A DNA stretch of 56,913 bases. Origin: Raillietiella orientalis. Its lineage: Eukaryota. The position numbers and the translations under genes were made by a program. Positions 1 to 56,913 of the stretch are shown here, in pieces. The stretch is taken from assembly GCA_036172245.1 (NCBI GenBank), contig JAYWIR010000011.1, forward strand, positions 4,588,001 through 4,644,913, written 5' to 3'. Every line of letters starts with the position of its first letter. Within the stretch, counting starts at the first letter, position 1. Under the pieces are notes generated by a model. The model ran no database searches, was not told the origin of the DNA, and worked only from the letters and a program-made list of their open reading frames with translations.

Positions 1-1407
1 AAGTACCTTGGCGTTCCGTTGGGGGACTTCTGCGTTGCAGAAGCCTGGTCAGGTCGTCTCCAAAAAGTGGAGTCAGCGATCGGCCCGTTTCTGGAAGGCA
101 AGCTTCACTTGCAGGAACGGGCCGCGGTGTGGAACGCGTTCGCGGCCCCCCTCCTTCGCCCCCTACTTTTTGTTTGCCCCGTACCCCGTGAATTGAGAAA
201 AAGAACGAAGGACCTCCTACGTATCGCCCTGTGGGGAGGCGGGAGGCCTCGTGTGCCTCTTAAAGACTTGTGCGCTCCACGTCGGGACGGAGGTCTCAGC
301 GTACTGACGATGGAGCGAATGGAAACACAGCTGCGGTGGCGTACTCTAGCCATCGCAGCGAAGATGTGGAGCACCCCTTGGTGCGTACCGGCCCGCCTTC
401 TCGCCAGACGTGTGTCCGGGACTGAAGGACTCGCGTCTTTTCTTCTGTGCCCCGGCCGGAAAAAAAGAAGATGCGGACTTCTCCTGGGACGCATGGCCAC
501 CCTGGCAAAGGAGAACGCGTGGATGACCTGCAGCCCTGCCAACTCCAGCGCATGGCTGGAAGAAACAGTTGGAACGTGGGCAAAGATAAACAATATCAGT
601 GAAGAATCCTGCAACGGCCTGCGTACCGGCATCTACACCCGCTGCACGCTGCGGAACATGATCGTGTGTCCCGCCAGAAGCACATGGGCGGAGACGACCC
701 CACTGGCCACGGCGCTACCCTTCCTACGGAGGGCGCTCCAAAATATTCGGAAGCCGAGATGGCAAGTCTCCTGCCGGATAGCGGGCAAAGAGAAGGATCT
801 GACTGGGTGGACCATGAGGGAACTGGCTGACGCCGCGACCCCAAGAATTCACCCGCATGGACTACGGAGATGGGGCGAGCTGCTTGGCATCCCGACGGAT
901 GACCTAGAGTGGCCCCCGTCGTTCATTGATTCATCAATCCTCCCCCTAAAGTGGCAGGAAACGGCGCTGTTGTTGTTGCACTGGGGTCTTCCCTGCAACG
1001 CGCGCCGCCACCACTGGACGTGGGGGAATGTTAAACAGAACTGTGCAGTGTGCGGGGAGAAGGAATCCCTCCCCCATCTGTTAGTGGACTGCGGTGCCCT
1101 CCGGCCCTTGTGGGAAAGTTTTGCTACGATTCTTTCAATGCCGGTAGGCAGCACCCCCAGAGACGTTATGAGACTCCTCTTCGTGCGACACGCCCTGACA
1201 CCAGCCTCAGCCCTGGCAGCACTTTGCTGCCTCCGAGGGATTGTGGCCGCGTGGAGCGCAGCCAACAGAGGAAGCAGCGACAGGGATCCCATCGTACACG
1301 CTGGTCGATACCTGCGAATCGCGATCGGCTGGTCCCATCTGGGAACAATGAAGAGGGACCTCGAGGGCATCCTCGAAAGGATGGTCTCTTCCTCCAGCGG
1401 GCTGTGA
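1..1407 (+). CDS. LINE ORF2 C-terminal part (end of RT, KYLGVP, through zinc finger CAVC..HLLVDC); open from window edge
   Basis: Uninterrupted frame from base 1 (KYLGVPL) to TGA at 1405-1407. Confidence 0.85.
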   Translation, partial: KYLGVPLGDFCVAEAWSGRLQKVESAIGPFLEGKLHLQERAAVWNAFAAPLLRPLLFVCPVPRELRKRTKDLLRIALWGGGRPRVPLKDLCAPRRDGGLSVLTMERMETQLRWRTLAIAAKMWSTPWCVPARLLARRVSGTEGLASFLLCPGRKKRRCGLLLGRMATLAKENAWMTCSPANSSAWLEETVGTWAKINNISEESCNGLRTGIYTRCTLRNMIVCPARSTWAETTPLATALPFLRRALQNIRKPRWQVSCRIAGKEKDLTGWTMRELADAATPRIHPHGLRRWGELLGIPTDDLEWPPSFIDSSILPLKWQETALLLLHWGLPCNARRHHWTWGNVKQNCAVCGEKESLPHLLVDCGALRPLWESFATILSMPVGSTPRDVMRLLFVRHALTPASALAALCCLRGIVAAWSAANRGSSDRDPIVHAGRYLRIAIGWSHLGTMKRDLEGILERMVSSSSGL

Positions 1408-1589
1408 TCCCTTCCCGGCCCTCCAAATAGTTTCTTTTCGTTTATTTCTTTTATTTTTCTTTTCGTTTTTAGCCCCTACTTCCTCCGCTGCCGAGGAGAG
1501 TCAAGCCGGCCTGCAAGTCGGCTTCCTGGCAGGTCCAAAGAACTATTGGCCGTAGCAGGGCCTCGTACCGCGAAAACATAGTGTTTAGC

Positions 1590-1619
1590 AATAAACGCCC
1601 CGGCGTGACCGGGTGAAAA
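1590..1619 (+). terminator. Element 3' terminus: AATAAA + CCCGG/CCGGG hairpin
   Basis: aataaacgccccggcgtgaccgggtgaaaa. Confidence 0.75.
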
Positions 1620-2087
1620 CTCCCCCGGAAACACGGTTCGTCCGCTGGTTGGAGTAAAAACCCCAATGCACCAGCATGATGACGTCCTGCTTCCACGAAA
1701 GGGGGAACACAGAAGTGTTCAAACAGGAGGGAGGGACCACAAGTTCTTCGGGGGGCACACTCAAGTGTTCACTCCACCGAAGGAGTCCCTTCGAGATGTG
1801 GCGAGGCATGGCGGCGTCTGCCAGCTCGCAAGTCCTCCAGCCTCCTATGGGTGGTGTTCCTCCTGCGATGGTGCAGGCGACCTCCCATCTCGCCGGTTCG
1901 CAGCTGTCATCTCTTGCCCTGAGGGCTGACAGTGCGTCGGCGAGGGGGGTGAGGACCAGGCCGGTCCACTTCTCCTGGCTGTTGCACACCTCGTCCACCG
2001 TGCAATACGGGGACAGGTGAGCGCAACGAAGTTCCAGGAGGGAAACATCCTGGTGCTTTGCCCAGCCATGCAACGGTTCATGCCGCC
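1618..2087 (-). pseudogene. Inverted ORF2 fragment of a family C element
   Basis: Minus frame ..ARWEVACTIAG..GLLRWSEHL..VHWGFYSN..VSGGV, homologous to about 19520-19990. Confidence 0.85.
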
Positions 2088-2683
2088 TTTCCGGGGGAGT
2101 TGTCTCCCCAAACTGTAAGCGGTGCGGGGAAGTGGAAACGCTCCCGCACCTGCTTTTGGACTGCGGTGTCCTCCAAGAACTGTGGCGGAGGCTGGCCTCA
2201 GCTCTCCTGCACCAGGGGGACACTGCGAGGGACTTGATGCGCCGCTTCTTCACGCCAGGCGGCCTGTCCTTAGGTGCTGTCAACGCAACGGTCTGTTGCA
2301 CCCACGCCATCGACAAGGCCCACCGAGAGTTGGAGAAGCTGGCCATCGTTCGTCAGCTCACCGATTAGCCAGCACAAGCATGTCGTTGGCTCACGAGTGA
2401 GCATATCTGCCACAGGTCGTAAGGAGAGAGATCGCCGGCATCCATCGCCGGTTTTCAAAGGAAGGAACGGACTCACCAAAGACCCCTGTCCCCTGGCCTC
2501 CATATTTTTATTTTTATTTCTTATAGTAGTGTATTTGTGGTCCCCTCCCTCCCGTTCCGGACTTTCGGCATACCGACCTGCGTGTCGGGGATCCCACCCC
2601 CTTCGTCTCTTGTTTTCCCCTTTGTCCAGGAACTCTGTTCCCGGATAGTTTTTAATAAACGCCCCGGCGCACCCGGGTGATAA
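2088..2683 (+). mobile_element. Copy K (family C): zinc-finger end of ORF2, 3'UTR and terminus
   Basis: SGGVVSPNCKRCGEVETLPHLLLDC; terminal aataaacgccccggcgcacccgggtgataa at 2654-2683. Confidence 0.85.
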
Positions 2684-2726
2684 ATAGCCGCCATCCGGAG
2701 ATTTGTTTGATCTCTTGCGCTCGCCC
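2684..2726 (-). pseudogene. 43-bp remnant of an AP endonuclease domain
   Basis: Minus frame GRAQEIKQISGWRL matches AQEIERIAGGRL of other copies. Confidence 0.65.
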
Positions 2727-2789
2727 AGTGCAGACGTGTTTTCGCGTCTCTCCGCGTCCGCGATCGAGCATCTTTGTGCGTGCGTTTTT

Positions 2790-3150
2790 GCTCGCACTTG
2801 TGTGTTTCTTGGAAGTGGACGAAGCAGCGTTGTGCAGCATGGCCATTTCTGGGAATGGTATGGAGGAGTCAGCCGGTGAATTGAATTCAATTGGAATGGA
2901 AGCAATGACATCCTCCGTGACGGTTTCCTCGCCTTTGGTGAGGAGCTACGCCGCCGTCACCTCCCAGGGAACTTCGCTCGCACTTGTTTGTTCCTGTGCA
3001 ATCTGCCAAGTAGCATAGTGCAACATGGCCACTACACAGGATAGTGTGGAGGAGCAATCCACTGGATGCACTTCAGCTGCAGTTGATGTGGCCGCATCCT
3101 CCGTAATGGTTTCCTCGCCCCCAGTGAGGAGTTACGCCGCCGTTACCTCA
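2790..3150 (+). repeat. Diverged 186-bp tandem duplication of 5'UTR end and ORF1 start
   Basis: gctcgcacttg at 2790 and 2976; ATG at 2839 and 3025; VRSYAAVTS twice. Confidence 0.85.
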
Positions 3151-4270
3151 AAAAGACCAGGACCCTGCGATGCGGAGTTCCTGGCATATGTGTCATCAAA
3201 ATACATGCCTGCACTCCGTTATAAGGTTAGTGGTCCCCTCAACAGGAGAATCGGTCGTGAGCTCAATGATGAGCTCGTCCGGAACGGAGTTCGCGAAGAA
3301 GAACTCCTTGCCATAGTGCCTGCTGGCAGGAAGTAATATACAAAGATTCTGTGCAAGAACCCTGACCTTGTGCAGCGCCTTCTCCGTAAAACGTTGACCA
3401 TCAATGGCAAGGAAGTCCCACCTACCGCGATGGACGACTCTTTTGTCGTTCCATTGTGCGACATCGAACCGGAAATCTTCGACAGCGATGTTGTAAGCGT
3501 GCTGGCGAAGTTCGCCACCGTGCACGCCCTGTGGAGGAGGCCGAAACCTTTGAAGGATTTATCCTTTGCACACATCGGACAAGCCTTCGCGCGGATCACC
3601 ATCGCGAACAGGCGTGTTGTGCCTGAGCAGCTGCAGGTGAACGGCACGGTCGTTCACCTGTCGTTCATAGGCCAGAGTCGCGCGTGCGAGCAGTGCGGCA
3701 AGGATGGGCACCGAATTAAAGAGTGCCCCTCTACAAGATGCCGCGATTACAAAGATTCCGGGCACGAAATCAAAAAGTGCCCCATACTTGCAAGAAAAAG
3801 AGCCGCAGCGGAAATTCTTTGGGTTCAAGAGACCACTGCACCAAAAGCCGCAGCGGCAAGTGAAATACGTCGTCCGCAAAAACTCGGAAAAAGCAACGAG
3901 CGATCCGCGGATAAAAAGAAAGCAACCCCGCCCGCAATGCCTACAAAGGGGAAAGTCACGGCGGGGGAGCCAATTAAAAAGGGCCGCGAAGGTTTGACGC
4001 GTGCCGTGTTCTCCCTTGCTGCCTAACTCGCAGGCACCTCTCCGAGCCAGGAACCAGGAAATCTCCGTAACACCCTGGAGGGAAAGGTAGGAAAACAGGA
4101 AGATCGCAACAGTGCGAAGACTTCTTGCCCCCTTCCGTTGTCCCTTCCGAGTTCCGGACAGCCCCACCGCAGCGCAGGTTCCTCTGCAAAGGCTATGAAA
4201 GCCGTAAAAAACAGCGTCGCGACGAGCAAAAGCACGCTGCATGCAGTCGCCCCATCGCTGACTCGGCAGT
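3025..4270 (+). pseudogene. ORF1 (gag-like, CCHC knuckles), stop-interrupted
   Basis: ORFs 3025-3336 and 3370-4026 in the same frame; zinc knuckle present. Confidence 0.8.
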
Positions 4271-7200
4271 TTTCCCAAGTATCACGAGGGGTGAGGTAAA
4301 TTTATGTTTTTTAAAATTTCTCTATAAAAACATGCACACTGCAATCTCTTCCATACCATTAGCACTTTTTTTTTTACCACTATGAAGTCCTTGGGTTCTT
4401 ACAAGTTCTGCACTAATGGTGGGTTTCCAGATGTTTGGTCCCGGGCGTCGTCTTCTATCCTCTTCAGGATGAATCAGTACGTCCAGGCTTGGATTTTCCT
4501 ACAGTTTCTAATGCCGATTTCCCTCTTCAGGAGCACTTGTAGGATCTCCATCGGTGGTGCGGCTCTTCTGGCTTTCCTCATTTTCCACCACCGCACAAGT
4601 ATGGCGGTGATGAAGAGGGCCATGGTCGTCCTCATCATGGGATTGTAACAGGGAACATTACCATCCCCCTGAAACATCCCGGCGAGGATCTCCATTACGG
4701 ATATGTTCGTAAGTACGATGATCCTTTTCAGGATCAGCCAGTCATGCAGCAGTGTGGGACACGTCAAGACGTGAAGTCTGGTGTCGTCGTCTCCACATGC
4801 TGCGCAGTCTCGGTCTTCCCGTCTTCCTGTAAAGTGCTGCAATCGGGACCCACTCTGGATTCCTCCGTGATAAAACATCAGGAGGTGATCCTGGGTGCCC
4901 GGCGGAAGGTCACTCCTTCAGAGCGTCGTGCCAATCGCTAACAGGTTGATCCGGTCACTCCCGTAGCGAACGGCGGCTTCCTGCAGGGCACTAATATCAC
5001 TGTGTTCTTCTTGAATTAGTCTTCGGAGGTTTGTTTTGGTTACCCTGGACCACGCAAAGTCGTTGTGATTGAACCACACTTGGCGAGTCATGTGGGTAAA
5101 CCTTTCTAACATCATCTCTATATACCTAAGTATGCGAGTGTGATGTAGGTAATGTCCTCGTTTCCGCTCCTGGATTCGTTGAAGGGTAAATCTGCACCGC
5201 TGGAGGATCCAGCTTCTCGTGTCCGGCGGGACAGGAAGCATCGAAGGGATCACCAGGATGGACTCGTCCTGCCAGAGTTCCCTACTTCTAGGCACGATCT
5301 TGATTTTGTGCTTTCGCAACAGCCGTTGCTTCCCCGTCCAGATTGGGTCGATTTAATTCCAGTCGCCTGCTCGGCCTAGCAGCGCAGTCATCAGGCCTTT
5401 CGATTTGTTCAACAACAACGCGTAGGCCTTGTGCGCCGCATACGGCCAGTCATCCCAGTGAGTGGCAATGTCCAGGATGTGTCGCGTATCGATGTTTTCC
5501 ATGGAATGTGCAGGCGTTTTCATCCCGGAACCGCCTTCTTCCCTGGGACGACACAGGGGTTTTAGTCGAACTTTTAGGCGATAGTGGCCCCACAGTGTTT
5601 TTCTCTGCAGCTTGTCGAACTCCCTCGTGGTGTCCTTGTTCATCCTCGCGAAGGCCGCCCCGAAGAGCACTTTTGGAAGGAGTACTCCGTTTTATATGTT
5701 GGCCTTGCGCTTCATTCCAAGGTCCGTTCGGGTGTACTTGGCTGCTTCCTTGGCCGTTTTCCCTAGGATCTCGGTCCACAATAGGTTCGACGCGGAGACG
5801 TTTCCAATGTAGACACCCAGGTACTTGACCTTCTCCACCGTTCGAAATCCTCTCCCCGCTAGAGCGGAGAGATCGAGGATTCCAACGGGCAAGAGCTGGC
5901 TTTTCTGAGCGTTGATCTTTAGAGCCAGGCCTTTATCTATCAGGTCTACCACATCCAGAAACGCTCGTTGATTTCTCTATCCCTTGATAAAGAAGAGAAG
6001 ATCATCAGCGTATGCTAGATAAGTAAGACGCTGGCCATCGATTGTAATGCCTTGCAGTCGCCCGCTCTTCTCGATAAAGGACGACAACGCCTCCATGTAG
6101 ATGACGAACAGCATCGGACCAAGTGAATCGCCCTGCCGGACTCCCCGTTGTATCCGCATTACTGCCGTCTCCTGGTCGTTGATTTTGATTTGGCAGTACT
6201 GATTCTGGAGTACCACCCTCACGAAGTTGCTGAAGTGTTCCGGAAGGCCAGGCTTCTTCAGAACCTTCAGAACCCTCCCATGGTCAATGGAGTCGAAAGC
6301 CTTCTCCATGTCAGTGAACACTATCGCCAGGTTCTCTCCGAAGTATCGGCTGAGTCCGACGGTGGCCTGGGCACACTTGACATTGTCCGACAAGTGACGT
6401 CCAGGGACTGCACACGTTTAGACCGGAAAGGGGAGCTTCGACATGACCCTGTCTAAGCGGTTGGACCAAATCTTCGCCAACCACTTGGCATCGGAGTTCA
6501 GGATTGAGATTGGCCTCCATTGAGCGATCTGGGTTGGGTCGCCTCCTTTCGTCATCAATCTCATCCTACTCTCGTTGAAGGACTCAGGTAGACTGAGTTC
6601 TTTACGGATGCAGAAGGTCAACTGGTTCAACAAGCGCAAGTAGGCATGGAGGTACCGCTGATAGTGCCTGATGGGTACACTGTGAGGGCCCGCCGCCACA
6701 TTCTTCCGCAGTTGTCCAAAAGCAGCCTTCACCTCGTTTCCGGAGAATTCCTCCTTCATTCTGTTCCTCTGGAGGTCGTGGGTCCTCTTCTCGAGATAGC
6801 TCAGAAAGGCTTGTAGACTAGAGCGACAGAGATGTTGTCGCCTGAGGTGTTTCGTGTAATGCCTGTGAAACGCTTCCACGATGTCCTCAGACGACTGTCG
6901 CTTTTGACCGTCGTACTGGATGAAGAAGATATCTGTTGCCAGATTTCTCTTCTCCAGCACGCCGACTTCGCTTTTTATGTTGCTGAAGACGTACTGACTC
7001 TCGTATTGATCGAAGCACTTTGAGAGTGAGCGATCTTGGATGTACAGCTCTCGGTACGCCTCCTGCCTAAAGCGTCTATCCCCGAATTGCATATTTGCAA
7101 ACAGATGTATCCTGTGTTTCAAGCTGTCGCAGTCGGCGAATCTTCTGATCTTTGTGGTCTTCAGAATCGTCTCTAGGAGCTCCTGAAACCCAGGATGTGT

Positions 7201-8160
7201 CTCGAACCAGGCGTACATGCTGATTAGCGCCGCCCTGGTGCCTTGCCTCCGCCAAGGATTCTCCGTTCTTAGGGAAAACCGCACCAGGGGGTGATCGGAC
7301 ACCGTAGTCATAGTGTCGCGAAACCCCTGGATGCGGTTCCCAAGTTCGGTGCTGTGCAGGACGTGATCGATTGGCTTGTGGCTTGCTGTTCGCCAGACCA
7401 GTCCGAACTCCTCGGATAGCCGTCGATAAGCCGTCCTTCCTCTGGCGTCTTCCGAATGAATGATCTCATCCAAGATGTTGAGATCGCCAGCAACAAGCAC
7501 GACGTCCTTAGGGGCGACCCTTTGCCGGAGTGTTGCATGCAGCGCCTCCGCACAACGATGTTTTAGCCTGTGCGGCCCGTATACGTTCACCAGGATAAGG
7601 TGAACAGTCGCGGACCAGGCCAGTCGCACGCCGATGATTCGTCCGGGTTGGGGACAGAACACTTCTAGAATAGTGGGATCCAAGTGGTTCTTGATGTGGA
7701 CCGCCACACCCTGCGTGTTCCGTTTTCCCTCGCTGACGAACATCTGCCCGTTGAATCGCCGTTCCATTTGCTGACTAATCTCGAGACCCATCTTCTGGAT
7801 CTCCTTCAGGCACACTATGTTTTTTTGTGCGATGGTCCGCAAAATCCTTTTTTTTTCCCCGGTGGACCACACCGTTTACATTCCAGAAGGCGGTGTTCTT
7901 TCTCCTGGGAGTCGATAGGGAAGAGGCCATAAAAGGGGAATACCTATTTCTTGACCTTCCTGAGCTTCTTCTGTCTGAGAGAGCGTGCTCTTCCAGACAA
8001 TGAAGAAGCAGCGGGCTTCTCGGAGCCTGCGTCACTCTTCATTCCTGTGAGGTCGGTTATTTCCGCCTCCTCCGTCGAGTGTTCGGCCCGCGCGATCAAT
8101 TTTCGAGATAGCGCCTCTATCTCGAAATCTCTCTATCTCTCCTCTCTCTCTATTCTCTAG
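4271..8160 (-). mobile_element. Copy I, divergent lower-GC LINE lineage, 5'-truncated inside ORF1
   Basis: FWNVNG, NVYGP, AGDLN, SDH, WRPISILNSD, DMEKAFD, GVRQGD, YADD, KYLG, CAAC..HVLTC; charged ORF1 tail at 7944-8160. Confidence 0.9.
4474..7930 (-). pseudogene. ORF2 (APE + RT + zinc finger) of copy I, several frameshifts and stops
   Basis: Split over ORFs 6418-7872, 5977-6393, 5692-5952, 5353-5670, 4918-5319, 4474-4878; ATG at 7930 (MASSLSTPRRKNTAFWNVNG). Confidence 0.85.
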
Positions 8161-9355
8161 CTGCACTTGGGGAGGAGCACCCGATTACGTGCAGTACAGT
8201 TGAGGCCGGTGGCGACCGCGCCCTCCAGCCCGTCGTGCTGCTTACTGCCCGCTCGCCGGGTGAGGCGAGCTCCACGGCCTCGCTTTCCCAGCCGTAATGA
8301 GGGCAATCGCGTCTTCTCGTCGTGTTGCGTAACGTCTTAAAATGTCAACGGGCTCCAACACGAGGAGAAGAGGCGACTAGTGGTTGACGCTCTGCGCGCC
8401 TTCGACTTGACGCTCCTGCAGGAGATTCACAGCATCTCCGGAGAGCAGACTGCCGAAATCGAACGGCGCGCGGGCGGAACGCTACTTTATAAATGCGGCG
8501 TTGCAGGTACGTGCGGCGTCGCTTTCCTCGTGCGAGGAAAGTTGGCGGAAGCGGTGTGCAGCGTTTCTTGCGACACGGAAGGCCGACTGGGACAGCTTGT
8601 ATTCAAGTGGTCCGACTCGATCGACTTTGTCTTATCCAACGTGTACGCGCCGAGCGGTGCTGGACGATGGGCCGAAAGGATTGAGTTCTTCGGTACACTT
8701 CAAAGCCAGTGGCTCACTCGATCTCACCCTACTGTAGTTCATCTCATTGCGGGGGACTTTAAAGTCCACCTGCTTTCCGAGAATACATCCCACAAAAGGG
8801 AAGAGTTGCAAGCGGAAGAGATGTACGCGTCCGTGCACGCGTGCAACTAGTTCGCTAGCGACCCTGTCATGACAGCAACCCTGGACCACGTATATCTAGA
8901 TGAACACTTGCTCTCTCACGTAGGACCGAGAGGTCCCGTGCCGTCAGTGCTTTCAGACCACAACAGGCTCGAGGTCGTGTTGCTCCCGCAGGCAAGAGGC
9001 CTCCAAACTGTTTTTGGACGATGCCGGCAGACTGGCTAAGCCATCTGGAGGCATCTGAGCATCTTCGTTAGTACCTTCTCGGCATTGCCATGAGTGAGAT
9101 CAAGGAATAAGACGATCTGAAAAGATCGGTCCGCGTGTTCTGCTGCCGGTTTCCCTTGCACCAGCTTGCGCGCGGCTTCGGAGAGGGCATAGCCAACAGC
9201 AGAGATTTTTTGCCGGGTAGCTCCTTTTCCAGACGCGCGGATGTTGGTCGATTATCTGAGTACAAGGCCAAGGCCTAGTGCCAGGCCTATCAGTGAGGAG
9301 CGACAGTTCTTTTCGACGACCTGGACCGGGAATGCTCGGCTCCAGCCAACGTTCG
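8161..9355 (+). mobile_element. Family C continuation (C'): ORF1 tail and decayed APE region of ORF2
   Basis: TAATG at 8295-8299; LLQEIH, NVYAP, AGDF, SDH; ends at SAPANVR where the E terminus begins. Confidence 0.85.
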
Positions 9356-12342: not shown

Positions 12343-12440
12343 TGTGGAGAGCGGACGTGCTTTTCCTGCGCTCCGCCTGCGTGGCAAAGCGAGTGTTTTT
12401 TCTTCTTGAGTGATTTGTGCGTGCACATCGTCGGTGTCCG

Positions 12441-42385: not shown

Positions 42386-42474
42386 CGTGCGGTCGTGTTT
42401 TTTCTGTGCTCCTGCCGTGAGAGTTTTCGAAGCCTTTTTTAGTGTGTTAGTGCGTGGTGCATCGCCGGTGTCCC

Positions 42475-45270: not shown

Positions 45271-45485
45271 TTGAAACCCGGGTGCGCCGGGACGTTTATT
45301 CTCAAGAATAAACCTATACAATCTGTGACTGGACCAGTAGTCCAGCCACGCCCTGGAAAGATATAGCCTGCCGGGCTACCGGTGCGCAGACCGGCGCAGT
45401 CGACCTCGGCAGCAGAGGGGAGGGGGAACGAAACAAAAAGAAAACAAAAAAAATAAACAAAAACCGAAGAGGGAGCGGGAAGGGA

Positions 45486-48400
45486 TCACAGTTTGCTGGG
45501 AGGGTCCGTCATCCTCTGGAGGATGCCGGCAAGCTGTTGTTGCGTGTGTGGTTCCAGATGGGGCCATCGCGTCGCCATCCTTAGGAAACGGGCGGCATGC
45601 ACGTTGGCATCCCTGTCACTGGATCCTCCCGTCGCTTTGCTCCATGCCACGACGATCCCGCGTAGGCAGCACAGGGCTGCAAGCGAGGCCGCTGGAGGCA
45701 GGGCGTCACAGACGAAGAAGGGGCGCAAAGAGTCTCTAAGGTTGCCTCCGGGGATCCCCAGGGCTGCGGCAAAGCGTTCCCACAAGGGACGGGGGGCAAC
45801 ACAATCCACTAACAGGTGGGGGAGGTATTCCCTCTCCCCGCACCTGACATAATTAGGGTTGACACCACCCCGCGTCCAGTGGTGTCGGCGGGCGTTGCAA
45901 GGAAGCCCCCAATGCAACACCAGCAGTGCCGACTGTTGCCATTTCATGGGGAGGGTGCGCGAGTCCATGAGCACCGGGGGCCACTCCAGATGTTCCTCCG
46001 GAACATCCAGTAGCTCGCCCCAGCGCAAGAGTCCATTTGGGGTGGTCCTCGGGGTCGCAGCGTTGGTGAGCTGACCCGTTCTCCAATCCCCGATCTTCTT
46101 TGCCATGCTGGCGATCTTCACAGTAACCTCCCATTGTGCCGCGACGTTGCTGCCCAGATGTTCCCGTAGGGTAGGCAGTACCGCAGCAAGGGAGGTTCTT
46201 TGAGCCCACGCTCTCCTTCGGGGATCCTCGAAGATTTCTCGGAGCGTGCGGTGGGCGTGAGGCCGGAACAGAGCTATTCGCTCGTGTTACGGGCTCTGCT
46301 CCTGAATCATTGCCCACGTGCGCACGGTTTCCTGCAGCCAGGCAGGACCGTTCGCAAGGCGTACGAGGATCCGCGCCGAGTTGTTCTTCACCAGCTTGGC
46401 CGCCCTCCGAAGTTGAAGTCCGCAGTGGCAGATGGGGCTTCGGAGTGCAAAGTAGGACGAGAGTCCCGCATTGCTGGTGGCCCGCTCGACGAGGAGACGT
46501 GCAGGGAGGCACCAAGGGGTGCACCAATTTTCTGCCATAAAGGCGACAACTCGGAACTGGAGCTGTAGCTCCAGCCGCTCCAACGTCAGGAGGCCCAGAC
46601 CACCATCCCGACGAGGAGCGCACAAGTCCGAAAGACGGAGTCGGGGCCTCCCTCTGCCCCAAAGGGCGATCCTCAGGAAGTCCTTCGTCCTCTTCTTTGA
46701 CTCCGCTGAGGGGGGGCAAACAAAAAGCAAGGGGCGAAGGAGGGGGGCCGCAAACGCGTTCCACGCCGCGGCCCGTTCATGCAGGAAGAACCTGCCGTCC
46801 TGGAAATGGTCGATCGCCGCCTGAGCCTTCTGAAGGCAGCCGGACCACGCTTCCGCAGGGGAGTAATCTCCCAACGGCACTCGAAGGTACTTGAAGTACC
46901 TCACCGTGAAGATCCCCAAACGGACCCAGTCCTGCTGTCCTGCCCACGCCGCTCCGACTGGCATTACGGACGACTTCGCCCTGTTCACCGTCAGTCCTGT
47001 TCCCCGACTCAGCAGGTCGAAGAACTCCTCGAGGAGTTCTTCGATTGCCGCAGCCGGGGTGGACATAGGCAGCAGCAGCAGAAGGTCGTCCGCGTACGCC
47101 GAAACCGCAGGCGTACCGGGACAATCGCACGGCAGGTGCGCCAGAGTCTCCCTGTACGCTCTCAGCACCAATTCGAAATAGGCGCTGAAGAGCAAGGGGC
47201 TGAGGCTGTCTCCTTGCCGTATGCCGCATCGCACCGGTACGCCGTATACGGTGGATCAACTAAAAAAGACAATAATAAGCGCGTCGCGCCAGCTGGAGCG
47301 CAGGTAGGCCAGCAAAGAGGCCGAGAAGCCGAAGCGTTCCAGAAGCTCCAAAAGGAGATTCTGGTCTACGCAATCGAATGCTTTATGCAAATCGACTGCG
47401 ACCGCGAGGGCTCATCTCCCCTCCCGACCATCCCGTCCCCCACCGACGGACGCACCGGAATTCCGGTTGCTTATTATGCTCCTTCCTTGTTGGAGCTCTA
47501 ACCATGTGGAAGCGTGGAACAGGTTCTCCTCCATACTTCGCCCGGGAACAGCATATGTCTGTTCCGAGCTGATGAAGATGTTGGCGACCCGTCCCACGCT
47601 CTCTGCCCACAGCTTGGCTAAGAACTTGGCGTCCGCATTCACTATTGTGATGGGACGCCAGTTGTTCATGCTCCTAAGGTCTCCTCCCTTAGGGAGGAGC
47701 CGCACCTTTGCTGAACGAAACGAGGCGGGAACGTCACCTGTCTCGCGTATCAGCAAGGTGAGTTGCTGTACCAGGGGAGTAAGCTCTGCCGCGAAAGTTT
47801 GATAAAACTCCGCAGGCAGGCCGTCCTCCCCTGGAGCCTTTCGCCTCTTGAGCTTTCCGATGGCCGAGATGATCTCGCCCATCGTGAAAGGCTCGTCGAG
47901 GTTCCTTTTCTCCTCCTCCCCGATCGCTGGAGCACCTTCCGGAAGCAGGAGTCGTGAGACGACCTGCTCCGGAGGCGCCCTGGCGTACAGGGAGGAGAAA
48001 AATTTCCTCACTATCCCGCGTTTCTGAGCGGGAACCGAGTGCTCCCGGCCCTGGTCGTCCAGCAAGCTAGCCGACCTGGATTGCCAGGCTTGCCTCTCGG
48101 CTCCCGCTCGGTATTCCGCTAACCTGCGCATGTCGGAAGTTCTTGCGTAACGTCGGGCCTGACGATAGCATCTTTCGTTACGCGGCCACTCCCCAAATCC
48201 CGCAGGTAGGCGATGCAGAGGGAACTGGTCGCAGAACTCCTGGACCGACCGCTTGAAGCGGTCCCAGTCCTGAAGTGTCTGCATTTTGAAGCTCCGAATA
48301 AACGCGCGGAGGTGTTCCGCCGCGTCGGGAAACTTCAGCCAGTCCCCTGGCAGACGCCACGCTGACGAGGGGGGACCCTTGTCGCGCGGACGCATTTGAA

Positions 48401-49078
48401 CATGATCCGACCATGGTCCGACAGCTCGGATGGTACCTTGCCGCGCCTGCCCACCCGAAAGCATAGGTGCTGATCAAGGTACACGTGATCGATGCTGCTT
48501 TCCATGGCCGTGTCCCCGGCTAACAAGTTGCGCGTGTTCATTTCTGCGCACACCTCGTTGACGCGGTCGTTCAGTGTATCCGGCGCACCTGAAAGCAGGC
48601 GCAGATTGAAATCACCTGCGATCAGGTGCGCTTTGCGAACTCCTGGTTCGGTCAGCCAATCGCGTCTCAGGTCAAGGTAGAACTACCTTCTTGCCTTCGC
48701 CCTCAACGCGGAGTTTCCGCTAGGAGCGTATAGGTTGGTGACGACCAGGTCGATAGAGTCGGACCAGCTGAGAGTCAGCTGACCGACGCGACCTGCGTCA
48801 TCGAACCGAACGTCCTTTATTGCGGTCTCGATGGCTGGCCGAAGCAGGAAGGCGACACCGCTTAATTTCGCGGTGCCGGAACGCCACAACAGCCGCCCAC
48901 CCGAGATCCGTTCGATCTCCCGGGCTTCATCTGCGGAGATCACGTGGATCTCCTGCAGCAGCACCAGGTCGAAGGATGCCAGGGCGGCGGCCACGTCACG
49001 CCTCTTGCCGTCATCGCTTAGCCCGTTCACGTTCCAACAGGCGATCAGCAGACGACGGCGAGAGGCGATTCCCGGCAT
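45486..49078 (-). pseudogene. B3 ORF2, disrupted
   Basis: ORFs 48683-49078, 47412-48464, 46287-47234, 45486-46121. Confidence 0.9.
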
Positions 49079-50718
49079 TATGGCTGGGAAAGTGGCGTCG
49101 CGGCACCTGCCGCGGGGCAGGTGTAGGAAAGGTCCATCGGTACGAGGACCATCGGAACGAGGACGGAGGCCTCTTCAGGCACCTGGGGTACCTGTTCGGC
49201 CTCCATCCTCACCATCCCCTCCGTGTCCGAGCGTGGAATTCTCTCGGGCGACAGGTCCCGGGAGTTTCCCAAGCTCATGGCAACCTCGCTACCGGAAGCC
49301 ATCTCTTCCCCTTCGTCGTGGGAGACGATCTTCCGGGGCATTGTGAACTTTCGTCCTGCCTTTTTGCGGGATGCCGCGGAGATGGATGCTGTGTTTCCGG
49401 CCTTCACCTCGGGGTGGGAAGTGGCCGACTCCTGAGGGGAAACCGGACGCCTGACGGCCTTCTTGCCAGCCTTGGGGGCAACCGGCTGCAGCGAGGCAGC
49501 GAGCTTCTCCGCGGCGCGCTCGAAGGCGACGTCATCGAGCGTGGGCTCGATGACGGACGCCGCCGCCTCGCTCCCCTCCTTGTTGACTTTGTCAACGGAG
49601 GGTTGATCAGGGGCAGCAGCGAGTTCTTTAGCGCCGCATTCGTCGACGGCGGGAATCTGCTCTACAACGACGCAGCAGCTTTTGGTTTTTTCGCGGCGCG
49701 GAGCGGTTTCGCTCTGTTTCGCCACGTTCTTTCCCTTCCTAGGGGAGTTTTTCTTGGGGTCGACCTTCTGCCACCCTGGCTTTTGACCCTCGCCCTTGAC
49801 CTTTTCGGCGTTTTTCGCCGGGGTCTCGGGGCTGGCCTTCGCCTTGGTGGCGGACGTCACCTCCTTAGCAGCAGCACGAGCTGCCAGCTTCTTTCTTTTT
49901 TTAGCCGCGCACTTTCTCGCGTTTTTCGCGGACACGACGCGGACTGTGTTTTGGGGGCACACCAGACGGGTGTGCCCCGCTTGTTTGCATTGCTGGCACT
50001 GCACGCTCGGACACCTCATTTTAAGGTGACCAAAGCTGCTGCAGCAGCCGCAGAACTTGGGTTTCCCCACGTACCACACGTCAACGGATTCACCGTTGAC
50101 GGTGAGTTTGTGGGGAAACTCACACCCTTCGCGTACCGTCACTCGCGCTGCACCCCGGCCGCCAAACAACCCATCGTAGTCAGCGAACAGGGTTGGCTTC
50201 CCCCACAGCGCGTGGACGGTCTCAAATTTGTTTATTTCGTTCCGGACGGCCTCCTTGGTCATCCGAAACGTAATCCCGGTCAGTTGAATGATCACCGACC
50301 TGTCTTCCGTTATTGGAAGAAGCCTCCGGCTTCCCATCATTACGGGGGTTCGCAGAAGCCTCTGCGCAAGAGTTGCCTCCTTGCAGATAACTTCCACAAA
50401 TTGACCCCCGCTTCTGACGGACATAGCCAGAAGCTCCTCTTTTTGTACGCCGAGAACGCGCATCGCCTGCAAGAGGGCGCGCGCGTTCTCGGGAGAATAT
50501 AGACCGCCTACCTTATATAGAAGGGGTGGGTTTTACCCCTCCTCCAGGTAAGCGCGCATTTTCGCCATAGCCGCTGGTGTAGGTGCCGCAGCCACGGCGT
50601 TCCAAGCCCTGGGTAGGGCCGGGAGCGCATCAGTGGGGGCGGGAGCCCCCACTTCCATCTCCTCCGGGGGCAATGGGGTCATCGCCCCCGGAATCTCACC
50701 GGTAGTGGAATCAGGCAT
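49078..50718 (-). pseudogene. B3 ORF1, one disruption near 50533
   Basis: ORFs 50533-50718 and 49078-50472 (464 aa, two knuckles). Confidence 0.9.
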
Positions 50719-50800
50719 TGCTGCCTAATCCTCCACCCACACCACACAAAACACCACCGGAAATCGAAATTCAGGAGCAGCAAAAAGACACGTCCGCTCG

Positions 50801-51724
50801 ACACTCCGCAATCTCGCTGATTGGGACCTTTTTAAGGCCTCGGTCCGCGAGTTTTGCGAGGAGTTCCCCTTGCACCGCATGCCCCCCGGATTTTGGGATG
50901 GGTTCCGTAACGAACGGGCGTATTTGTATGCCCGCCGTTACGCAAGGACCCCCAACATCCGTCGCCTGGCGGAGTATCGAGCAGGGGCCGAAAGTCAAGC
51001 CTGGCAATCCGGGTCGGACAGCTTGCTGGACGACCAGGGCCGGGAGCACTCGGCTCCGGCTAGAATACGGCACCTCGTGCGGTGTTATTTTTCCTCCCTT
51101 TACGTCAGGGCGCCCCCGGGCCAAGATGACTCTCGGCGCTTGCTTCCGGAAGGTGCCCCGGCAATAGGGGAGGAGGAGAAGGAAAGCCTCGACGAGCCTT
51201 TTACCACCGGCGAAATTCTCGCCGGTATCAAAAGGCTCAAGAGGCGGAAAGCTCCAGAGGAAGACGGCTTGCCCGCGGAGTTCTATTAGAGCTTCGCGGA
51301 AGAGCTGGCACCCCTGCTGCTTCAGATGACAAGGCTCATCCGAGACGAAGGCGATGTTCCCGCCTCGTTTCGTTCAGCCAGGGTGAGGCTCCTTCCGAAA
51401 GGAGGAGACCTCAGGAAACTCAGCAACTGGCGTCCGATCACAATTGTGAATACGGAGGCCTTGCTGATCGCCGGACTGTGGGCTTCGCGTCTGGAGCAGG
51501 TGGCCAATTCCGTAATTAGCCCGGAGCAGTTTTACGCTGTTCCCGGGCGAAGTATGGAGGCCTACCTCTTCTTCGCGAGCACATGGTTTTATGTGCAGAG
51601 TAGTGAAGAAAAGGAAGAGGGAATGATTTGCAGCCCCGCTTTGGGGGCGTCAGCCGGGCAGGGACAGGATTTCCAGGTGGGAAGAAAGCCCTAGCGATCG
51701 CAGTCGATCTACAGAAACGTTCGA
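50801..51724 (+). pseudogene. Host ORF2 resumed after B3, up to the KAFD-equivalent site
   Basis: TLRNLADWD..LDEPFTTGEI..WRPITIVN..AVDLQK. Confidence 0.85.
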
Positions 51725-51965
51725 TTTTCACCCGGATTTCGCCGGGGCGTTTATTGTTGAATAAACATTTACAAAGACGTGCAGTGACTGGACCATCGCT
51801 CCAGCCAAGCAAGAAGAAACACAGAGCCTGCCGGGTCACCGGTTCGCAGACCGGTACGGTCCACCACCCCAGCAAGGGAAAGGGGGAAAAACAAAAAACA
51901 AAACAAAAAGAAAGGAAAAAACTGGGAGGGTACGGGAAGGGATCACAGTTGCTGGTGAGGCCGTT
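51725..51965 (-). mobile_element. Copy D3 (family D), 3'UTR-only fragment
   Basis: Matches about 39842-40085; terminus at 51725-51755. Confidence 0.9.
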
Positions 51966-54180
51966 TGCAGAAATGAAAGACGGAACGATTGGCAGCACCG
52001 CTTTGGGGGCGTCAGCCGGGCAGGGACAGGACTCCCAGGGGGGAAGGGAGCCCTAGCGATCGCAGTCGATCTGCATAAAGCGTTTGACTGCGTGGACCAG
52101 GATCTCCTGCTGGAGCTCCTGGGACGCATGGGCTTCCCTCCCTCCCTACCGACCTACCTGCGCTCTTGCTGGCGCAGCGCGCTGATCAATATCTCTTTCA
52201 GAGGTCAAATGGCGTACGGCGTGCCGGTACGGCGGGGCATACGGCAGGGCGACAGCCTCAGTTTCCTGCTCTTTAGCACCTACTTTGAGTTGGTGCTGAG
52301 AGCGTACAGGGGAACTCTGGCGCACCTGCCGCACGACTGTGCCGGTACGCCGGCCGTTTCAGCATACGCGGACGACCTTCTGCTGCTGCTCCCTATGTCC
52401 ACCTTGGCTGCGGCGATCGAGGAGTTCTTCGACCTGCTGCATCGGGGAACCGGACTTACGGTGAACAGGGCGAAGTCGTCCGTGATGCCAGTTGGTGCGG
52501 CGTGGGCAGGGCAGCAGGACTGGGTCCGTTTGGGGATCCCCACGGTGAGGTACTTCAAGTACCTTGGTGTGCCGTCGGGGGACTACTCCCCTGCGGAAGC
52601 ATGGTCCGGCTGCCTCCAAAAAGTAGAGACGGCGATCGGCCCGTTCCGAGGCGGCAGGTTTTTCCTGCCTGAACGGGCCGCGGTTTGGAACACGTTCGCG
52701 GCTCCTCTCCTCCGCCCCCTGCCTTTTGTTTGCCCCCCCACAGAGAGAATTAAAAAGCGGACAAGGGACCTCCTCCGTATCGCCCTTTGGGGCAACGGGA
52801 GGGCCCGAGACCGCTTAAAGGACTTGTGCGCTCCTCGTCGGGATGGTGGTCTAGGCCTCCTGACGCAGGAGCGGCTGGAGCTTCAGCTCCAGTTCCGATT
52901 GTCGGCACTCGTTCCAGAGTTGTGGTGCATGTGTTGGTGCGTCCCTGCACGTCTCCTTCTCCAGCAAGCCACCGGCAAGACGGGACTGACGTCGTTTCTT
53001 GCACTCCGTCGCCGCCTCAACCGATGCGGACTCCAGCTACGGAGGGTGGCTGCGCTGTATCGCAAAAACCCAGGATTGGTCACCTGTCGCCCTTTGAACG
53101 GTAGTGCCTGGTTGCAGGAAACCGTTCGAACGTGGGGACAGTTCGGCATGCAACGCTCCCAACAGGAACGAAGGTTCCCGTTTGGGGGTTACAGAAGTTG
53201 CACGCTCCGCGAGATCCTGGAGGATCCAAAGAACAGAGCGTGGGCAGGAAGAACCCCCCTCGCTGCTGCGCTGCCCTCCCTGATGGAAGATCTGGACAGC
53301 GATGTTGCGGCTAAGTGGGAGGTTTCAGTTACAATTTCCGGAAAGGAGAAGAAGATAGGAGAGTGGAATACGGGCCAGTTAACAGACGCTGCGTCCCCGA
53401 GTACGCCTCCCAATGGACTTCTGCGCTGAGGCGCGCTGCTCGATGTTCCCATTGAACATCTGAAGTGGCCCTCGGTGCTCATGAACACTTCCGCCCTCCC
53501 CTTAAAATGGCGGGAGTCGGCTCTCCTGTTGCAGCACTGGGGACTCCCCTGCAAAGCCCGCCGACACCACTGGACCTGGGGAGCGGTGGACCCCAATTGC
53601 GTCAGGTGTGGGGAACGGGAGTCCCTCCCCCACCTGCTAGTGGATTGTGTTGCCCTTCGGCTTTTTTGGTTTCGCTTTGCCGCGGCCATCGGAATCCCCT
53701 GAGGCAACTGAGGGACGTACTGAAAGCCCTCTTCGTTTCCGACGCCCCTCGGCCAGCGGCCTCGTTAGCAGCTTTGTGCTGCCTACGCGGGATCGTCACC
53801 GCTTGGAGCAAGGCTACGGGAGGACAACGCGACCAGGGTGCCATCCAGCCAGCCTCCCAGTTCCTGAGGAGAGCGTCCCAATGGTTCCACCTGGATCCAG
53901 GAATACAGAAGGAGCTTGCCGGCATCCTGCAAAGGATGCAACGGCCCCACCAGCAACTGTGATCCCTTCCCTTACCCTCCCAACTTTTCTCTTCTTTTTT
54001 GTTTTGTTTTTTGTTTTTCCCCCTTCCCCCTGCTGCCGTGGTGGACCGTACCGGTCTGCAAACCGGTGACCCGGCAGGCTCTGTGTTTCTTCTTGCGTGG
54101 CTGGAGCAATGGTCCAGCCACCGCACGTCTTTGTAAATGTTTATTTTACAATAAACGCCCCGGCGAAATCCGGGTGAAAA
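51966..54180 (+). mobile_element. Copy D4 (family D), 3' 2.2 kb, head-to-head with D3
   Basis: RT core ORF 52092-53429 (GIRQGD, YADD), zinc finger, stop at 53960-53962, terminus at 54150-54180. Confidence 0.9.
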
Positions 54181-55895
54181 TCGAATGCTTTGTGCAAATC
54201 TACTGCTAGTGCCAAGGCTCCCGGCGTTTCTCCCGTCCGTCCGCACTGGCGCACGCAGTCGGCAGAAGGTCTTGCCGCTGTTCGGCTATCCGCCGCAACG
54301 CGCTCTTGAAGCTGCCACCAGGTGCGCGCGAAAAGAAGGTTCGCATCCATGGATCTACCCGGTACAGCGTAAGACTGCTCCAGGCTTACCACGGACTCCG
54401 CGACTTTCCCTAAGCGCGTGACCCACAGCTTCGAAAACAACTTGACGTACGTATTCACTAATGTGATCGGACGCCAGTTGTTGAGTTGGCGCAGATCCCC
54501 TCCTTTCGGAAGGAGACGCACCCTTGCTGAGCGGAAGGAAGAAGGTACATCGCCCGTCACCCTCATCAGCGTCGAGATTCTAAGAACCAGTGGGGCGAGT
54601 TCCGCCGCGAAGCTCTGATAGAACTCCGCGGGCAGTCCGTCCTCACCTGGCGTCTTCCGTCTCTTGAGTCCTGCGATGGCGGAAGAAACTTCCTCCAACG
54701 TGAAGGGCTCGTCGAGACGATCGCGTTCCTCCTCGCCGATGCCATGTGCAGCCCGCGGCAAAAGTAGTTCGGAGAGGACTCTTTCCGTCGGGGAATTAGC
54801 GTAGAGCAAGGAGAAGTGACGCTTTAGTGCTCGCCGCACTTCGGCAGGAGCCGTGCATTCCCGGCCTTGGTCGTCGAGCAGAATAGCCGCTCCAGACTGC
54901 CAGACCTGGCGCTCGGCCCTCGCCTTGTACTCTGCGAGTTGCCGGACTTCCGCACGTCTCGAGAAGGTGCGCGCCTGCAGGAATGCTCTGCTATTGGCCA
55001 CGCCTTCCCCGAAGCCGCGTGGTAGCAGGTGCAGGGGGAACCGGTCGCAAAACTCGCGAACCGATCTTTTAAGATGGTCCCAGTCTGCGAGTTCCCGGAT
55101 GGCAAAGTTGCGAAGGAACCGGCGAAGATGCTCCGCCGCTTCCGTATGACTCAGCCAATCCGCCGGTATCCTCCAAACATTGTTTGGAGGTCCCTTGCCC
55201 GGCGGGAGTAGCTCGAACTCCAGCCTATCATGGTCCGATAACGTGGACGGCACCCTGCCTCTCCTTCCCACTCGCGAGAGTAGGTGCTCATCGAGGTAGA
55301 GGTGATCCACGCACCTTTCCAGTCCAGGCTCGCCGGCTTCCAAGTTACGCGCGTGCACCGACGCGCATGCCTCTTCCACCCGCGACCGTTCCGCCAGGGA
55401 CCGCGTCTCGTTGGAAAGAAGGTGGACGTTGAAGTCCCCTGCGACGAGATGCGCCACTCTGGCTCCGGAGTTTCTGAGCCATTGGCTCTCCAGCACGTCG
55501 AAGAACTCGATTCTTTCGACACGCCGATGAAAGCCGCTCGGCGCGTAGACGTTGGTTACGACGAGGTCGATTGAATCTGACCACTTGAGTGCAAGTTGGC
55601 CCATTCGCCCTTCCTGGTCGAATCGAACGCTGCACACCGCTCCCGCCATCCTACTATTGACGAGAAAACCGACTTCGCACGATTGTGCAGAACCTTTTCG
55701 CCAGTACAGGGTGCCACCCGCGCGCTGTTCGATTTCCGCAACCTCCGCATCGGAGATGTAATGCATCTCCTGAAGGATCGCCAAATCGAAATGTCGCAGG
55801 GTGTCTGACACGTCGCGCCTCTTTCCGTCCCTGCGCAGCCCATTGACGTTCCAACAGGATACACTGGATTGACGAAAAGAGGCGACTTCCTGCAT
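54181..55895 (-). pseudogene. ORF2 of J (APE + RT N-terminal half), open but cut by D4
   Basis: ORF 54141-55916: CWNVNG..WRPITLVN..DLHKAFD. Confidence 0.9.
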
Positions 55896-56640
55896 TAAGG
55901 CTGGGAAGGTGAGCACAGATTTCTCGCCTTGTCCGGCGAGTGGTCACGAGACAGAGCGGTCGATCTCGGAGACTGGACATCTCCATTCGAAGCCGCACTG
56001 CTTGTTGCCGGTAGTTCAGAGGTGAGGTCCTTTTCCTCCTCTTTGCTCCCCAGCAACAGTTCCTCCTCGGCAACCACGCGCTTGCGGGTCTTCGGGAGGC
56101 GATTGCGCGGTTTCGGGCGGTTGTCGCGCTGTGTGCTCTTTCTGTCGGACTCTGGATCAGAATCCGACAGTCCAGGGCTTGCCAGGCGCTGCTGCTGTTT
56201 CCCGGAATTAGGGAAATCGTTCGCTGCCTGTTTCCTAGCAATTTCTGCAACTGCGGCTGGGACTTTCGTCCTTTTAGCCGCAGCAGCAGCTTCCCGCTCC
56301 ATCCGCGAGAGAACGAATGCGCAGGAGGAAAGAATCGCAATCTTTTTCTGCGAAGGTTTCGCGGGTTTCTTTCGCCCACTCACCTTCACACAGAGCTGCG
56401 AAGACCTTGATGGTTTCTTTCTAATGATCTTTCTCACCTGCATCCAGCCGTCTTCCTTCGCGTCGCAGTTATCTTTGCCATCCTGAGATGGCGCTGCTTA
56501 CACGGATGTAAGAGGCGTTGCCTTGGCTGCCTCTTGGAGTGCTGCCTCCACGCAGGCGTAAGCAACTCCTTTAGCGATCGCGAGAGCCTTGCGCACGGGC
56601 GGTATCGCCGCCGCTGAACGAAAGGGAGGCGTGATTATTG
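54181..56640 (-). mobile_element. Copy J (family C-related): ORF1 tail and ORF2 up to KAFD
   Basis: TAATG at 55893-55897; open APE-RT frame; ORF1 tail at 55895-56443. Confidence 0.88.
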
Positions 56641-56913
56641 CTAGTTTAAAACTATACCCAATACCCCGCCAAGGCAGTGTTTAAAACCACTGCCAAGGCA
56701 ATTTTTGAGTGCCCTGAGAGGGCAAGTGTTTGAGTGAACGCCAGTGTGGAAAGAGTGCAACCGGGGACCATCAGCAGCAGCAGCAGCAGCGCCGAGAAGT
56801 CCACGGTGGAAGTCCTGCAGTCGTCCCGAGCAGCCGGAACAGCTTCCAGGATGCAGGCATCTGGAGTTGGAGGAGTGGTGAGGCCATCGTCCCCCATGGA
56901 AGCCATGGAGGTA
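56641..56913 (+). mobile_element. Probable 5' end of a further element
   Basis: Abrupt compositional change; plus frame ends ..SSPMEAMEV, like the AMEV motif at ORF1 N-termini of F, G and D0. Confidence 0.4.

Follow-up and report, generated by a model that had tools for sequence, protein, structure and literature searches.

Two LINE families in a nested cluster of Raillietiella orientalis that probably integrate at fixed nucleotides of other families' ORF2

We analyzed a window of 56,913 bp from Raillietiella orientalis (assembly GCA_036172245.1, contig JAYWIR010000011.1, positions 4,588,001–4,644,913, forward strand); all results concern this single locus of ~57 kb. A tblastx map against one full-length element of the window, REF, shows almost nothing but nested L1-type long interspersed nuclear elements (LINEs) on both strands. 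GC content is 52–62%, and ~59% across most of the length. Two of the families present, D and U, end each at one nucleotide inside the second open reading frame (ORF2) of other families. We think it likely that the window is a Zepp-like nested cluster in which D and U use sequence-specific target-primed reverse transcription to insert into other families' ORF2 DNA. ‘Zepp-like’ here refers to cluster architecture and GC content.

The elements are L1-type LINEs, with an apurinic/apyrimidinic (AP)-type endonuclease (APE) at the N-terminus of ORF2 followed by the reverse transcriptase (RT). A Pfam scan of 17 long stop-to-stop open reading frames (ORFs) found Exo_endo_phos in 4, RVT_1 in 6, zf-RVT in 1 (25.4 bits, under the 27.5 cut-off) and no match in 7; Exo_endo_phos and RVT_1 occur together in the single ORF 16749–18668. 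Pfam gave ORF1 no match, and a CCHC-type zinc-knuckle pair is visible in its translation. REF (14782–20689, plus strand) is full length: ORF1 has the zinc-knuckle pair and ORF2 the endonuclease, RT and a zinc tail, the latter frame being broken by one frameshift and one stop. We used REF as a ruler, where ref position r is window position 14793 + r. Nesting is at least three levels deep, with U and REF in H1, H1 in E6/7 and E6/7 on F05. In a protein search, the nearest database protein to the U RT was an unnamed metagenome ORF (73%) with KAFD uninterrupted, and named matches were at most 29% identical; an ESM Atlas search with the same RT gave generic RT clusters only and no informative taxon. 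The families D and U and their hosts are laid out as follows.

12350..14781, plus: H1 part a (family H); 5′ end, ORF1, endonuclease as far as GDFN
14782..20689, plus: REF; full length, sense in H1 at G-D-F-N; target-site duplication TTCAAT (14776–14781, 20690–20695)
20690..21030, plus: H1 part b; terminates in the left 17-bp TLRNL target copy (21014–21030)
21031..26547, minus: U1; full length, antisense in H1 at TLRNL
26565..32101, minus: U2; full length, tandem with U1; target copies middle 26548–26564 and right 32102–32118
32102..35119, plus: H1 part c; ORF2 from TLRNL onward, closing with the 3′ hairpin; H1 is antisense within E6/7, at ..LPPGFGE.. (~19-bp target-site duplication)
39168..39841, plus: Xa; REF-family RT fragment (94% to REF), stops at KAFD
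39842..41331, minus: D2; 5′-truncated at ref ~4309; 3′ junction at KAFD in Xa
41329..41746, plus: D3; ~415 nucleotides (nt); 3′ junction at KAFD in Xb
41747..42385, minus: Xb; H-family RT fragment, ref 3707 to 3075
42400..45270, plus: H3 part a (family H); 5′ end, ORF1, endonuclease, to the left TLRNL copy (45254–45270)
45271..50800, minus: U3; full length, antisense in H3 at TLRNL
50801..51724, plus: H3 part b (H3b); from the right target copy (50801–50817) to KAFD
51725..51965, minus: D4; 241 nt; 3′ junction at KAFD in H3
51966..54180, plus: D1; ref ~3585 to 3′ end; 3′ junction at KAFD in G
54181..56497, minus: G; host; start of ORF2 through KAFD, plus ORF1 tail

Matrices of DNA identity, computed for three regions, resolve at least eight families, which are interleaved in the window and 45–75% alike. 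REF and Xa form one family (94% identical), and G is 74% identical to REF over ref 3075–3707. Family H comprises H1, H3 and Xb at 83–91% identity (Xb is 91% identical to H1 and 83% to H3), family U comprises U1–U3 at 89–95%, and family D comprises D1–D4 at 88.5–95% over the last 236 nt. Further families are E6/7, E1, E2, E8 (65% identity to U in the first 900 nt) and E3 (59% to REF). E4 belongs to a distant, AT-richer LINE lineage with GC of ~52% and 23–40% amino-acid identity to the other elements.

Every element but E4 ends in ..AATAAACGCCCCGGCG(3-4 nt)CCGGGTGA(A/T)AA, forming a GC hairpin and lacking poly(A); the 3′ end of E4 is AT-rich and lacks the GC hairpin. The 3′-end motif ATAAAYGYYYCGGS occurs 12 times in the window against 0.33 expected, and with the divergent E4 this gives 13 element 3′ ends in total. 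Full-length copies start with a common CGAGCGGACGTG..TTTTC..GCTCC. RNAalifold applied to the 12 motif-bearing 3′ ends returned no more than a stem of 4 pairs, one of them compensatory; the CCCGG..CCGGG hairpin shows no covariation because it is too conserved. A single scan of metagenomes for the shared 3′ motif, both hairpin arms included, found 0 loci.

The 19-nt 3′ terminus of D (end ..CCGGGTGAAAA) occurs four times in the window with no mismatches. In all four copies this end is joined to the host sense strand directly after ..AAGGCGTTCGA, the K-A-F-D codons of RT motif A (..VDLHKAFD), and the element lies antisense to its host. The junctions are at 39841/39842, 41746/41747, 51724/51725 and 54180/54181. 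The 5′ ends all differ: D1 begins at ref ~3585, D2 at ~4309, D3 at ~5447 and D4 at ~5620. The four hosts fall into three groups (REF-like Xa; G; H-like Xb and H3b) that are 59–74% identical to each other, with Xb and H3b at 83%. D appears to tolerate hosts so unlike one another because the KAFD nucleotides are kept in all families. The site is present in 13 copies in the window, 12 found by pattern plus the mutated site of H3b, and D 3′ ends sit on four of them. At a fifth KAFD site, in a host remnant called S_a (37331–37400), the 5′ end of E8 adjoins ..GCAAGGCGTTCGA; from its sequence, this would look like the 5′ junction of a KAFD insertion with a 13–14 bp duplication.

U was found at a different site. 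All three copies are full length and antisense at the T-L-R-N-L codons between the endonuclease and RT of family H, with U1 and U2 in tandem in H1 and U3 in H3, and each is flanked by a 17-bp target duplication. The U 3′ end (..CCCGGGTTTCAA) is always joined after ..ACGCTCCGGAATCTCCA (T-L-R-N-L-Q). The left, middle and right target copies in H1 are ACGCTCCAGAGTCTCTG, ACGCTCCGGAATCTCCA and ACGCTCCGGAATCTCCA, and those in H3 are ACCCTCCGGAATCTCGC and ACACTCCGCAATCTCGC. The target copies that flank U3 both have GC as their last two bases, and those that flank U2 both have CA; the third H1 copy has TG. These ends match the next codon of each host, GCT (Ala) in H3 and CAG (Gln) in H1, so the allele difference predates insertion; with such locus-specific target alleles, a single ancestral U insertion would call for identical parallel changes on two occasions. 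Only H1 and H3, both occupied, have the TLRNL nucleotide sequence. Seven other copies covering the position, among them REF, G, E7 and U1–U3, read differently and are empty. From this distribution, the target of U is apparently the sequence of one family (H) and not a conserved motif, and U itself lacks its own target.

An earlier reading of the window from its sequence only had proposed that families with several copies reuse one insertion nucleotide in different hosts, and this holds for D (4/4 at KAFD) and for U, which it called B (3/3 at TLRNL). It had further described the sites as fixed and protein-constrained. That description suits KAFD (RT motif A) and GDFN (endonuclease), catalytic motifs common to all window families, but not TLRNL, which is confined to family H and differs in seven other copies.

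Shared junctions could arise once and be copied, so the divergence of inserts was compared with that of their host flanks. Within the window, blastn finds blocks of 5.5–6.5 kb at 91–94% identity that include host flanks, and most of the block identity resides in the inserts rather than the flanks:

U1/U3: insert 93.3% (5125/5495), host flank 80.4% (946/1176), p = 6e-37
U2/U3: insert 93.2%, host flank 80.4%
D1/D2: insert 97.2% (1441/1483), host flank 74.4% (477/641), p = 3e-54
D3/D1: insert 91.0%, host flank 62.1%
D3/D2: insert 90.6%, host flank 58.7%
D4/D1: insert 91.9%, host flank 63.0%
D4/D2: insert 93.2%, host flank 60.6%
D4/D3: insert 88.8%, host flank 83.5%, p = 0.056 (the sole exception)

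For D1/D2, identity per 100-column window is 93–99% up to the junction and 62–84% past it, with the drop exactly at the D/KAFD junction. Removing the inserts together with one target copy leaves open host frames: ..TAGDFNLRLLTG.., ..FLRGVTLRNLQDWDLFK.., ..FLRGVTLRNLADWDLFK.. and ..NRLPPGFGERL.., the last from E6/7 healed across the H1 insertion (..RLPPGFGE..); the healed frames can also be written ..TAGDFNLRLLTGEPEP.., ..FLRGVTLRNLQDWDLFKESVREFC.., ..FLRGVTLRNLADWDLFKASVREFC.. and ..FPLNRLPPGFGERLRND.. Judged from these alignments, D probably inserted independently at least three times, and probably four, and U at least twice.

The rest of the window holds elements that contribute one junction each or none that is clean:

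1..1617, plus: E1; LINE 3′ part with ORF2 C-terminus and 3′ hairpin end; 5′ part beyond the window
1618..2690, plus: E2; inverted piece 1618–~2001 (ref 5197 to 4814), then direct 3′ piece ~2050–2690 (ref ~5150–5896)
2728..4285, plus: E3; 5′ end and ORF1; boundaries approximate
4290..8160, minus: E4; endonuclease, RT, zinc tail; antisense in the variable ORF1 tail of E3/F05; boundaries approximate
8161..9351, plus: F05; ORF1 end and ORF2 to ref 3050; interrupted by the E6/7 3′ end
9352..12349, minus: E6/7, 3′ part; ref 5895 to 2865; remainder at 35120–~37325
35120..37325, minus: E6/7, 5′ part; ref 2876 to 1
37331..37400, minus: S_a; 70-nt host ORF2 remnant ..RKAFDCVNQDLLLELLERLG.., flanked by the 5′ ends of E6/7 and E8
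37401..39160, plus: E8; only 5′ untranslated region (UTR) and ORF1; 5′ junction at the KAFD codons of S_a

E3 probably continues as F05. The insertion of E4 in the non-conserved ORF1 tail carries an imperfect duplication of ~14 bp. E2 sits directly after the 3′ end of E1, its two pieces overlap by ~50 nt, and its layout is the anatomy of a twin-primed LINE insertion.

Single junctions were found for six families (REF, H1, E6/7, E1, E2 and E4). REF lies in sense at GDFN of the H1 endonuclease. H1 occupies ..LPPGFGE.. in E6/7, and E6/7 in turn occupies ref 3050 in F05, both in antisense; E4 lies in the variable ORF1 tail and E1 beside E2. The flanks of different families share no common sequence or microhomology, and this would fit recognition by family-specific endonucleases, as in the R1 and Tx1 groups. 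The sequence-only reading had extended the use of fixed sites in sister LINEs to the families at large; two families (D and U) bear this out, but the other six have one junction each and E4 lies in a variable tail. The hyperparasitic network that it also proposed, with competitors inactivated, would be a conjecture beyond these junctions. It is likewise true that every boundary falls inside a LINE, as that reading had it, but this is uninformative in a window that is nearly all LINE, and at least four boundaries are unlike clean nesting: 37330/37331, 39160/39168, 41329–41331 and 42385/42400, possibly also 51965/51966. Near these boundaries, the 3′ end of E6/7 rests on F05 but the 5′ end on S_a, E8 ends at 39160 next to Xa, and Xb adjoins the 5′ end of H3. 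The end of F05 (9351) and the start of Xa (39168) share ~20 nt at ref 3033–3050, although the two differ in family (71% vs 94% to REF); joining F05 and Xa as one element conflicts with their identity to REF of 57–78% vs 88–97%. Among inserts with an identifiable host, 10/11 are antisense (four D, three U, H1, E6/7 and E4), REF alone being sense; counted by family, the bias is 5/6 and not significant.

D copies form head-to-head pairs at two loci, Xa|D2><D3|Xb and H3b|D4><D1|G. In each pair the 3′ ends are anchored at the KAFD of different hosts, which are convergent. The two loci (39168–42385 and 50801–56497) have the same layout, and the downstream half of neither host is present. The first 122 nt of D1 (51966–52087) repeat 51604–51724 at 87%. 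Read as nested insertions, the two loci need a 600-bp deletion and a 122-bp duplication, and conflict with the identities of Xb/H3b (83%) and D2/D1 (97%). The same 83% vs 97% led us to reject Xb plus D2 and H3 plus D1 as single elements, and an identity of 61% led us to reject Xb and G as a 632-bp target duplication. Speculatively, each pair could represent two KAFD nicks in neighbouring hosts, the complementary DNAs (cDNAs) having been joined and the intervening DNA lost; alternatively, the loci may reflect rearrangement or misassembly.

We considered several other explanations for the shared junctions. One is a single ancestral insertion per family, followed by segmental or tandem duplication of host and insert together. 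The 5.5–6.5 kb blocks at 91–94% identity do take in short host flanks, U1 and U2 are in tandem, and the two D loci have the same order of H-type host, short D, long D and REF-type host; for D3/D4, insert and flank identities do not differ significantly (88.8% vs 83.5%, p = 0.056). Against this, the flanks are much more diverged than the inserts in 7/8 comparisons, with a sharp step at the junction, the hosts come from different families (59–74% identity), each locus has its own target-duplication alleles, found to either side of the insert, and four D copies have four 5′ truncation points. We regard duplication as very unlikely and, on these alignments, as largely refuted. The sequence-only reading had itself named amplification of one insertion as something that would refute it, and for most pairs the shared junctions do not trace to one. 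A related proposal is that host-plus-insert composites (H with antisense U, or a host with a D stub) are the transposing unit, so that the junction is copied and not re-created. It predicts equal divergence of insert and flank, but we found 93% vs 80% for U and 97% vs 74% for D; D hosts again lie in different families, and target-duplication alleles are again locus-specific. Both H copies covering the site carry U (2/2), as a composite would, the stretch 37331–39160 resembles sequence carried along at the E6/7 5′ end, and read-through copying of neighbours may occur, yet we consider transposing composites very improbable.

Gene conversion among D or U copies in a recombining, centromere-like cluster could account for the high insert identity, and would then weaken the case for independent insertions. 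Identity in the window is indeed mosaic: Xa is 94% identical to REF vs 57–78% for the adjoining F05, H1 and H3/D1 are ~80% alike to ref ~4460 and ~55% past it, and D1 and D2 are 97% alike though D1 adjoins an older-looking context. However, conversion leaves unexplained why host flanks of different families meet the insert at the same nucleotide, why both target copies carry locus-specific alleles and why truncation points differ. It would also have to stop exactly at the junction, where identity steps down although the flanks are homologous at 74–80%. We judge it quite unlikely. A further alternative is regional targeting, to centromeric chromatin or to ‘any LINE DNA’, with loose sequence preference, where shared sites come from microhomology with RNA 3′ ends at a few favoured spots. 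As described in the accessible portions of PMC3446292 and PMC9940879, Zepp/ZeppL clusters are limited to one region per chromosome, and according to the accessible part of bioRxiv 2025.03.28.645958 ZeppL has recently inserted in Chlamydomonas at an intergenic position that is not within a ZeppL copy. The six families with one junction each, including E4 in a non-conserved tail, also suit a regional preference. On the other side, if positions in a ~6-kb element were used at random, the meeting of four D ends at a single nucleotide, and of two to three U ends at a second one, could not by our estimate be chance, and the junctions of six families have no common microhomology. Regional targeting seems to us unlikely.

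Sequence-specific integration of D and U has points against it as well. The counts of 4/4 for D and 3/3 for U are small samples from one locus. As D4/D3 and their flanks do not differ significantly (p = 0.056), D may represent three events, not four. KAFD is without D at 9 of its 13 sites, and the sites of REF and H1 are empty although their 23 upstream nt are those of the occupied Xb, so KAFD occupancy is not saturated. No D copy has a clean junction pair in one host: D4 requires a 122-bp duplication and D3 a ~600-bp deletion, or both loci are rearranged. No endonuclease domain within the window could be assigned to D. For U, the tandem of U1 and U2 may be a second hit into a regenerated target or the product of unequal exchange, which the 17/17 identity of the middle and right H1 target copies does not separate. 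Neither matching metagenome contigs nor same-strain reads were found. In the one sequencing run found (X1, as Logan contigs; no RNA run is listed), the share of sampled words is 0.13, and of 220 contigs on 39000–56913 at 90% likeness, 136 are only 90–95% alike; they thus represent a relative or other copies, and X1 does not validate the junctions. One X1 contig of 3755 nt on Xa terminates 7 nt beyond the KAFD junction, and another (depth 2, 27 nt on its shorter side) links 45258 to 50834 via 28 other letters, resembling the expectation for an H-like copy without U; both are too weak as evidence.

If D and U do integrate by sequence-specific target-primed reverse transcription, the AP-type endonuclease of each family would nick the sense strand of the host at its own site. 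The freed 3′-OH would then prime reverse transcription from the RNA end, which bears the hairpin and no poly(A). As in R1/SART-type elements, read-through transcripts with downstream target sequence may aid positioning. A second nick 6–19 bp away would give rise to the target duplication, and truncation would leave the 5′ junction variable. The outcome would be that LINEs accumulate self-reinforcingly in one place with little harm to host genes. A broader picture is possible but doubtful: a guild of sister LINE families would split each other's ORF2 into private, nucleotide-precise sites (GDFN, TLRNL, LPxGFGE, KAFD and others), the cluster growing as an interlocking food web, and KAFD nicking in convergent neighbour hosts might let two primed cDNAs join, which would produce head-to-head D pairs like those seen, with loss of the intervening DNA. 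In that case the elements would not only build a centromere-like locus but also remodel it.

Two short tandem arrays lie within LINE 5′ regions or ORF1 of family H, one in H3 (42552–42812; 24/48/96-bp unit, ~11 repeats) and one in H1 (13638–13825; 57-bp unit, 3.3 copies). A full-length U4 spliceosomal RNA sequence was found at 56585–56722 on the plus strand (RF00015, 93.9 bits, model positions 1–138 of 138). On one side of it is the ORF1 tail of G (minus strand); on the other, at the window end, is what appears to be a plus-strand LINE beginning with its 5′ UTR and the start of ORF1. The sequence could be a U4–LINE chimeric retrocopy that arose through template switching, or else a U4 gene at the cluster edge.

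Site-specific LINEs are natural models for programmable, break-free gene insertion and are central to how transposons find ‘safe havens’. Targets in the conserved coding sequence of rival LINEs would explain, by sequence and not chromatin, the confinement and growth of Zepp-like centromeric clusters. They would also add several new endonuclease specificities within one closely related protein set, useful for understanding how AP-type endonucleases read DNA, and would offer a tractable case of transposon-on-transposon parasitism. If the head-to-head D pairs are two primed ends joined, they would further point to a LINE-driven route to deletions and inversions in centromere-like DNA.

Among known systems, elements of the R1, TRAS/SART and Tx1 group have an AP-type endonuclease and join their 3′ ends precisely to a single nucleotide in a multicopy target, with related families using different targets. 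Tx1L, in the Tx1D DNA transposon, is a LINE specialised on another transposon, and Keno, Mutsu and others insert in small-RNA genes. The window elements are alike in their AP-type endonuclease and in the single 3′ junction nucleotide across independent copies of D and U. As for target-site duplication, U has 17 bp at both loci and D has no clean junction pair, but a 122-bp repeat, a ~600-bp gap or a rearrangement. They differ in their targets. Those of the R1, TRAS/SART and Tx1 group are host RNA genes, telomeres or a DNA transposon, whereas those in the window are coding sequences of sister LINEs, including RT and endonuclease catalytic motifs, and several families in the same cluster prey on one another.

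Centromeres built of transposon clusters (Athila, CRM) likewise contain young elements nested in older ones on both strands, and in the accessible part of bioRxiv 10.64898/2026.09.17.752431 the independence of insertions is shown by target duplications. Nested transposon centromeres have been described widely. Integration in them is guided by chromatin and target duplications vary from one insertion to the next, whereas here the same nucleotide is reused.

The closest likeness is to Zepp/ZeppL of green algae (Coccomyxa/‘Chlorella’ C-169). Both are GC-rich L1-type LINEs (61% for Zepp vs ~59% for the window) in clusters of tens of kb, with nested and often 5′-truncated copies on both strands, and the clusters of copies within earlier copies that mark Zepp/ZeppL were found in the window. 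Zepp has poly(A), whereas the window elements end in a hairpin without it, and the window holds at least eight interleaved families with family-specific single-nucleotide targets in each other's ORF2. The accessible portion of PMC3446292 gives Zepp clusters of 1.5–42.3 kb at 61% GC, one per chromosome. The sequence-only reading had known of no prior description of such a network. Our literature search, which did not extend to the primary Zepp papers, found no description of sister LINE families with a fixed nucleotide in another family's ORF2, but nested insertion targeting existing copies is already stated for Zepp in the accessible text of PMC8226300. What is new here is the cross-family, single-nucleotide precision, not nesting itself.

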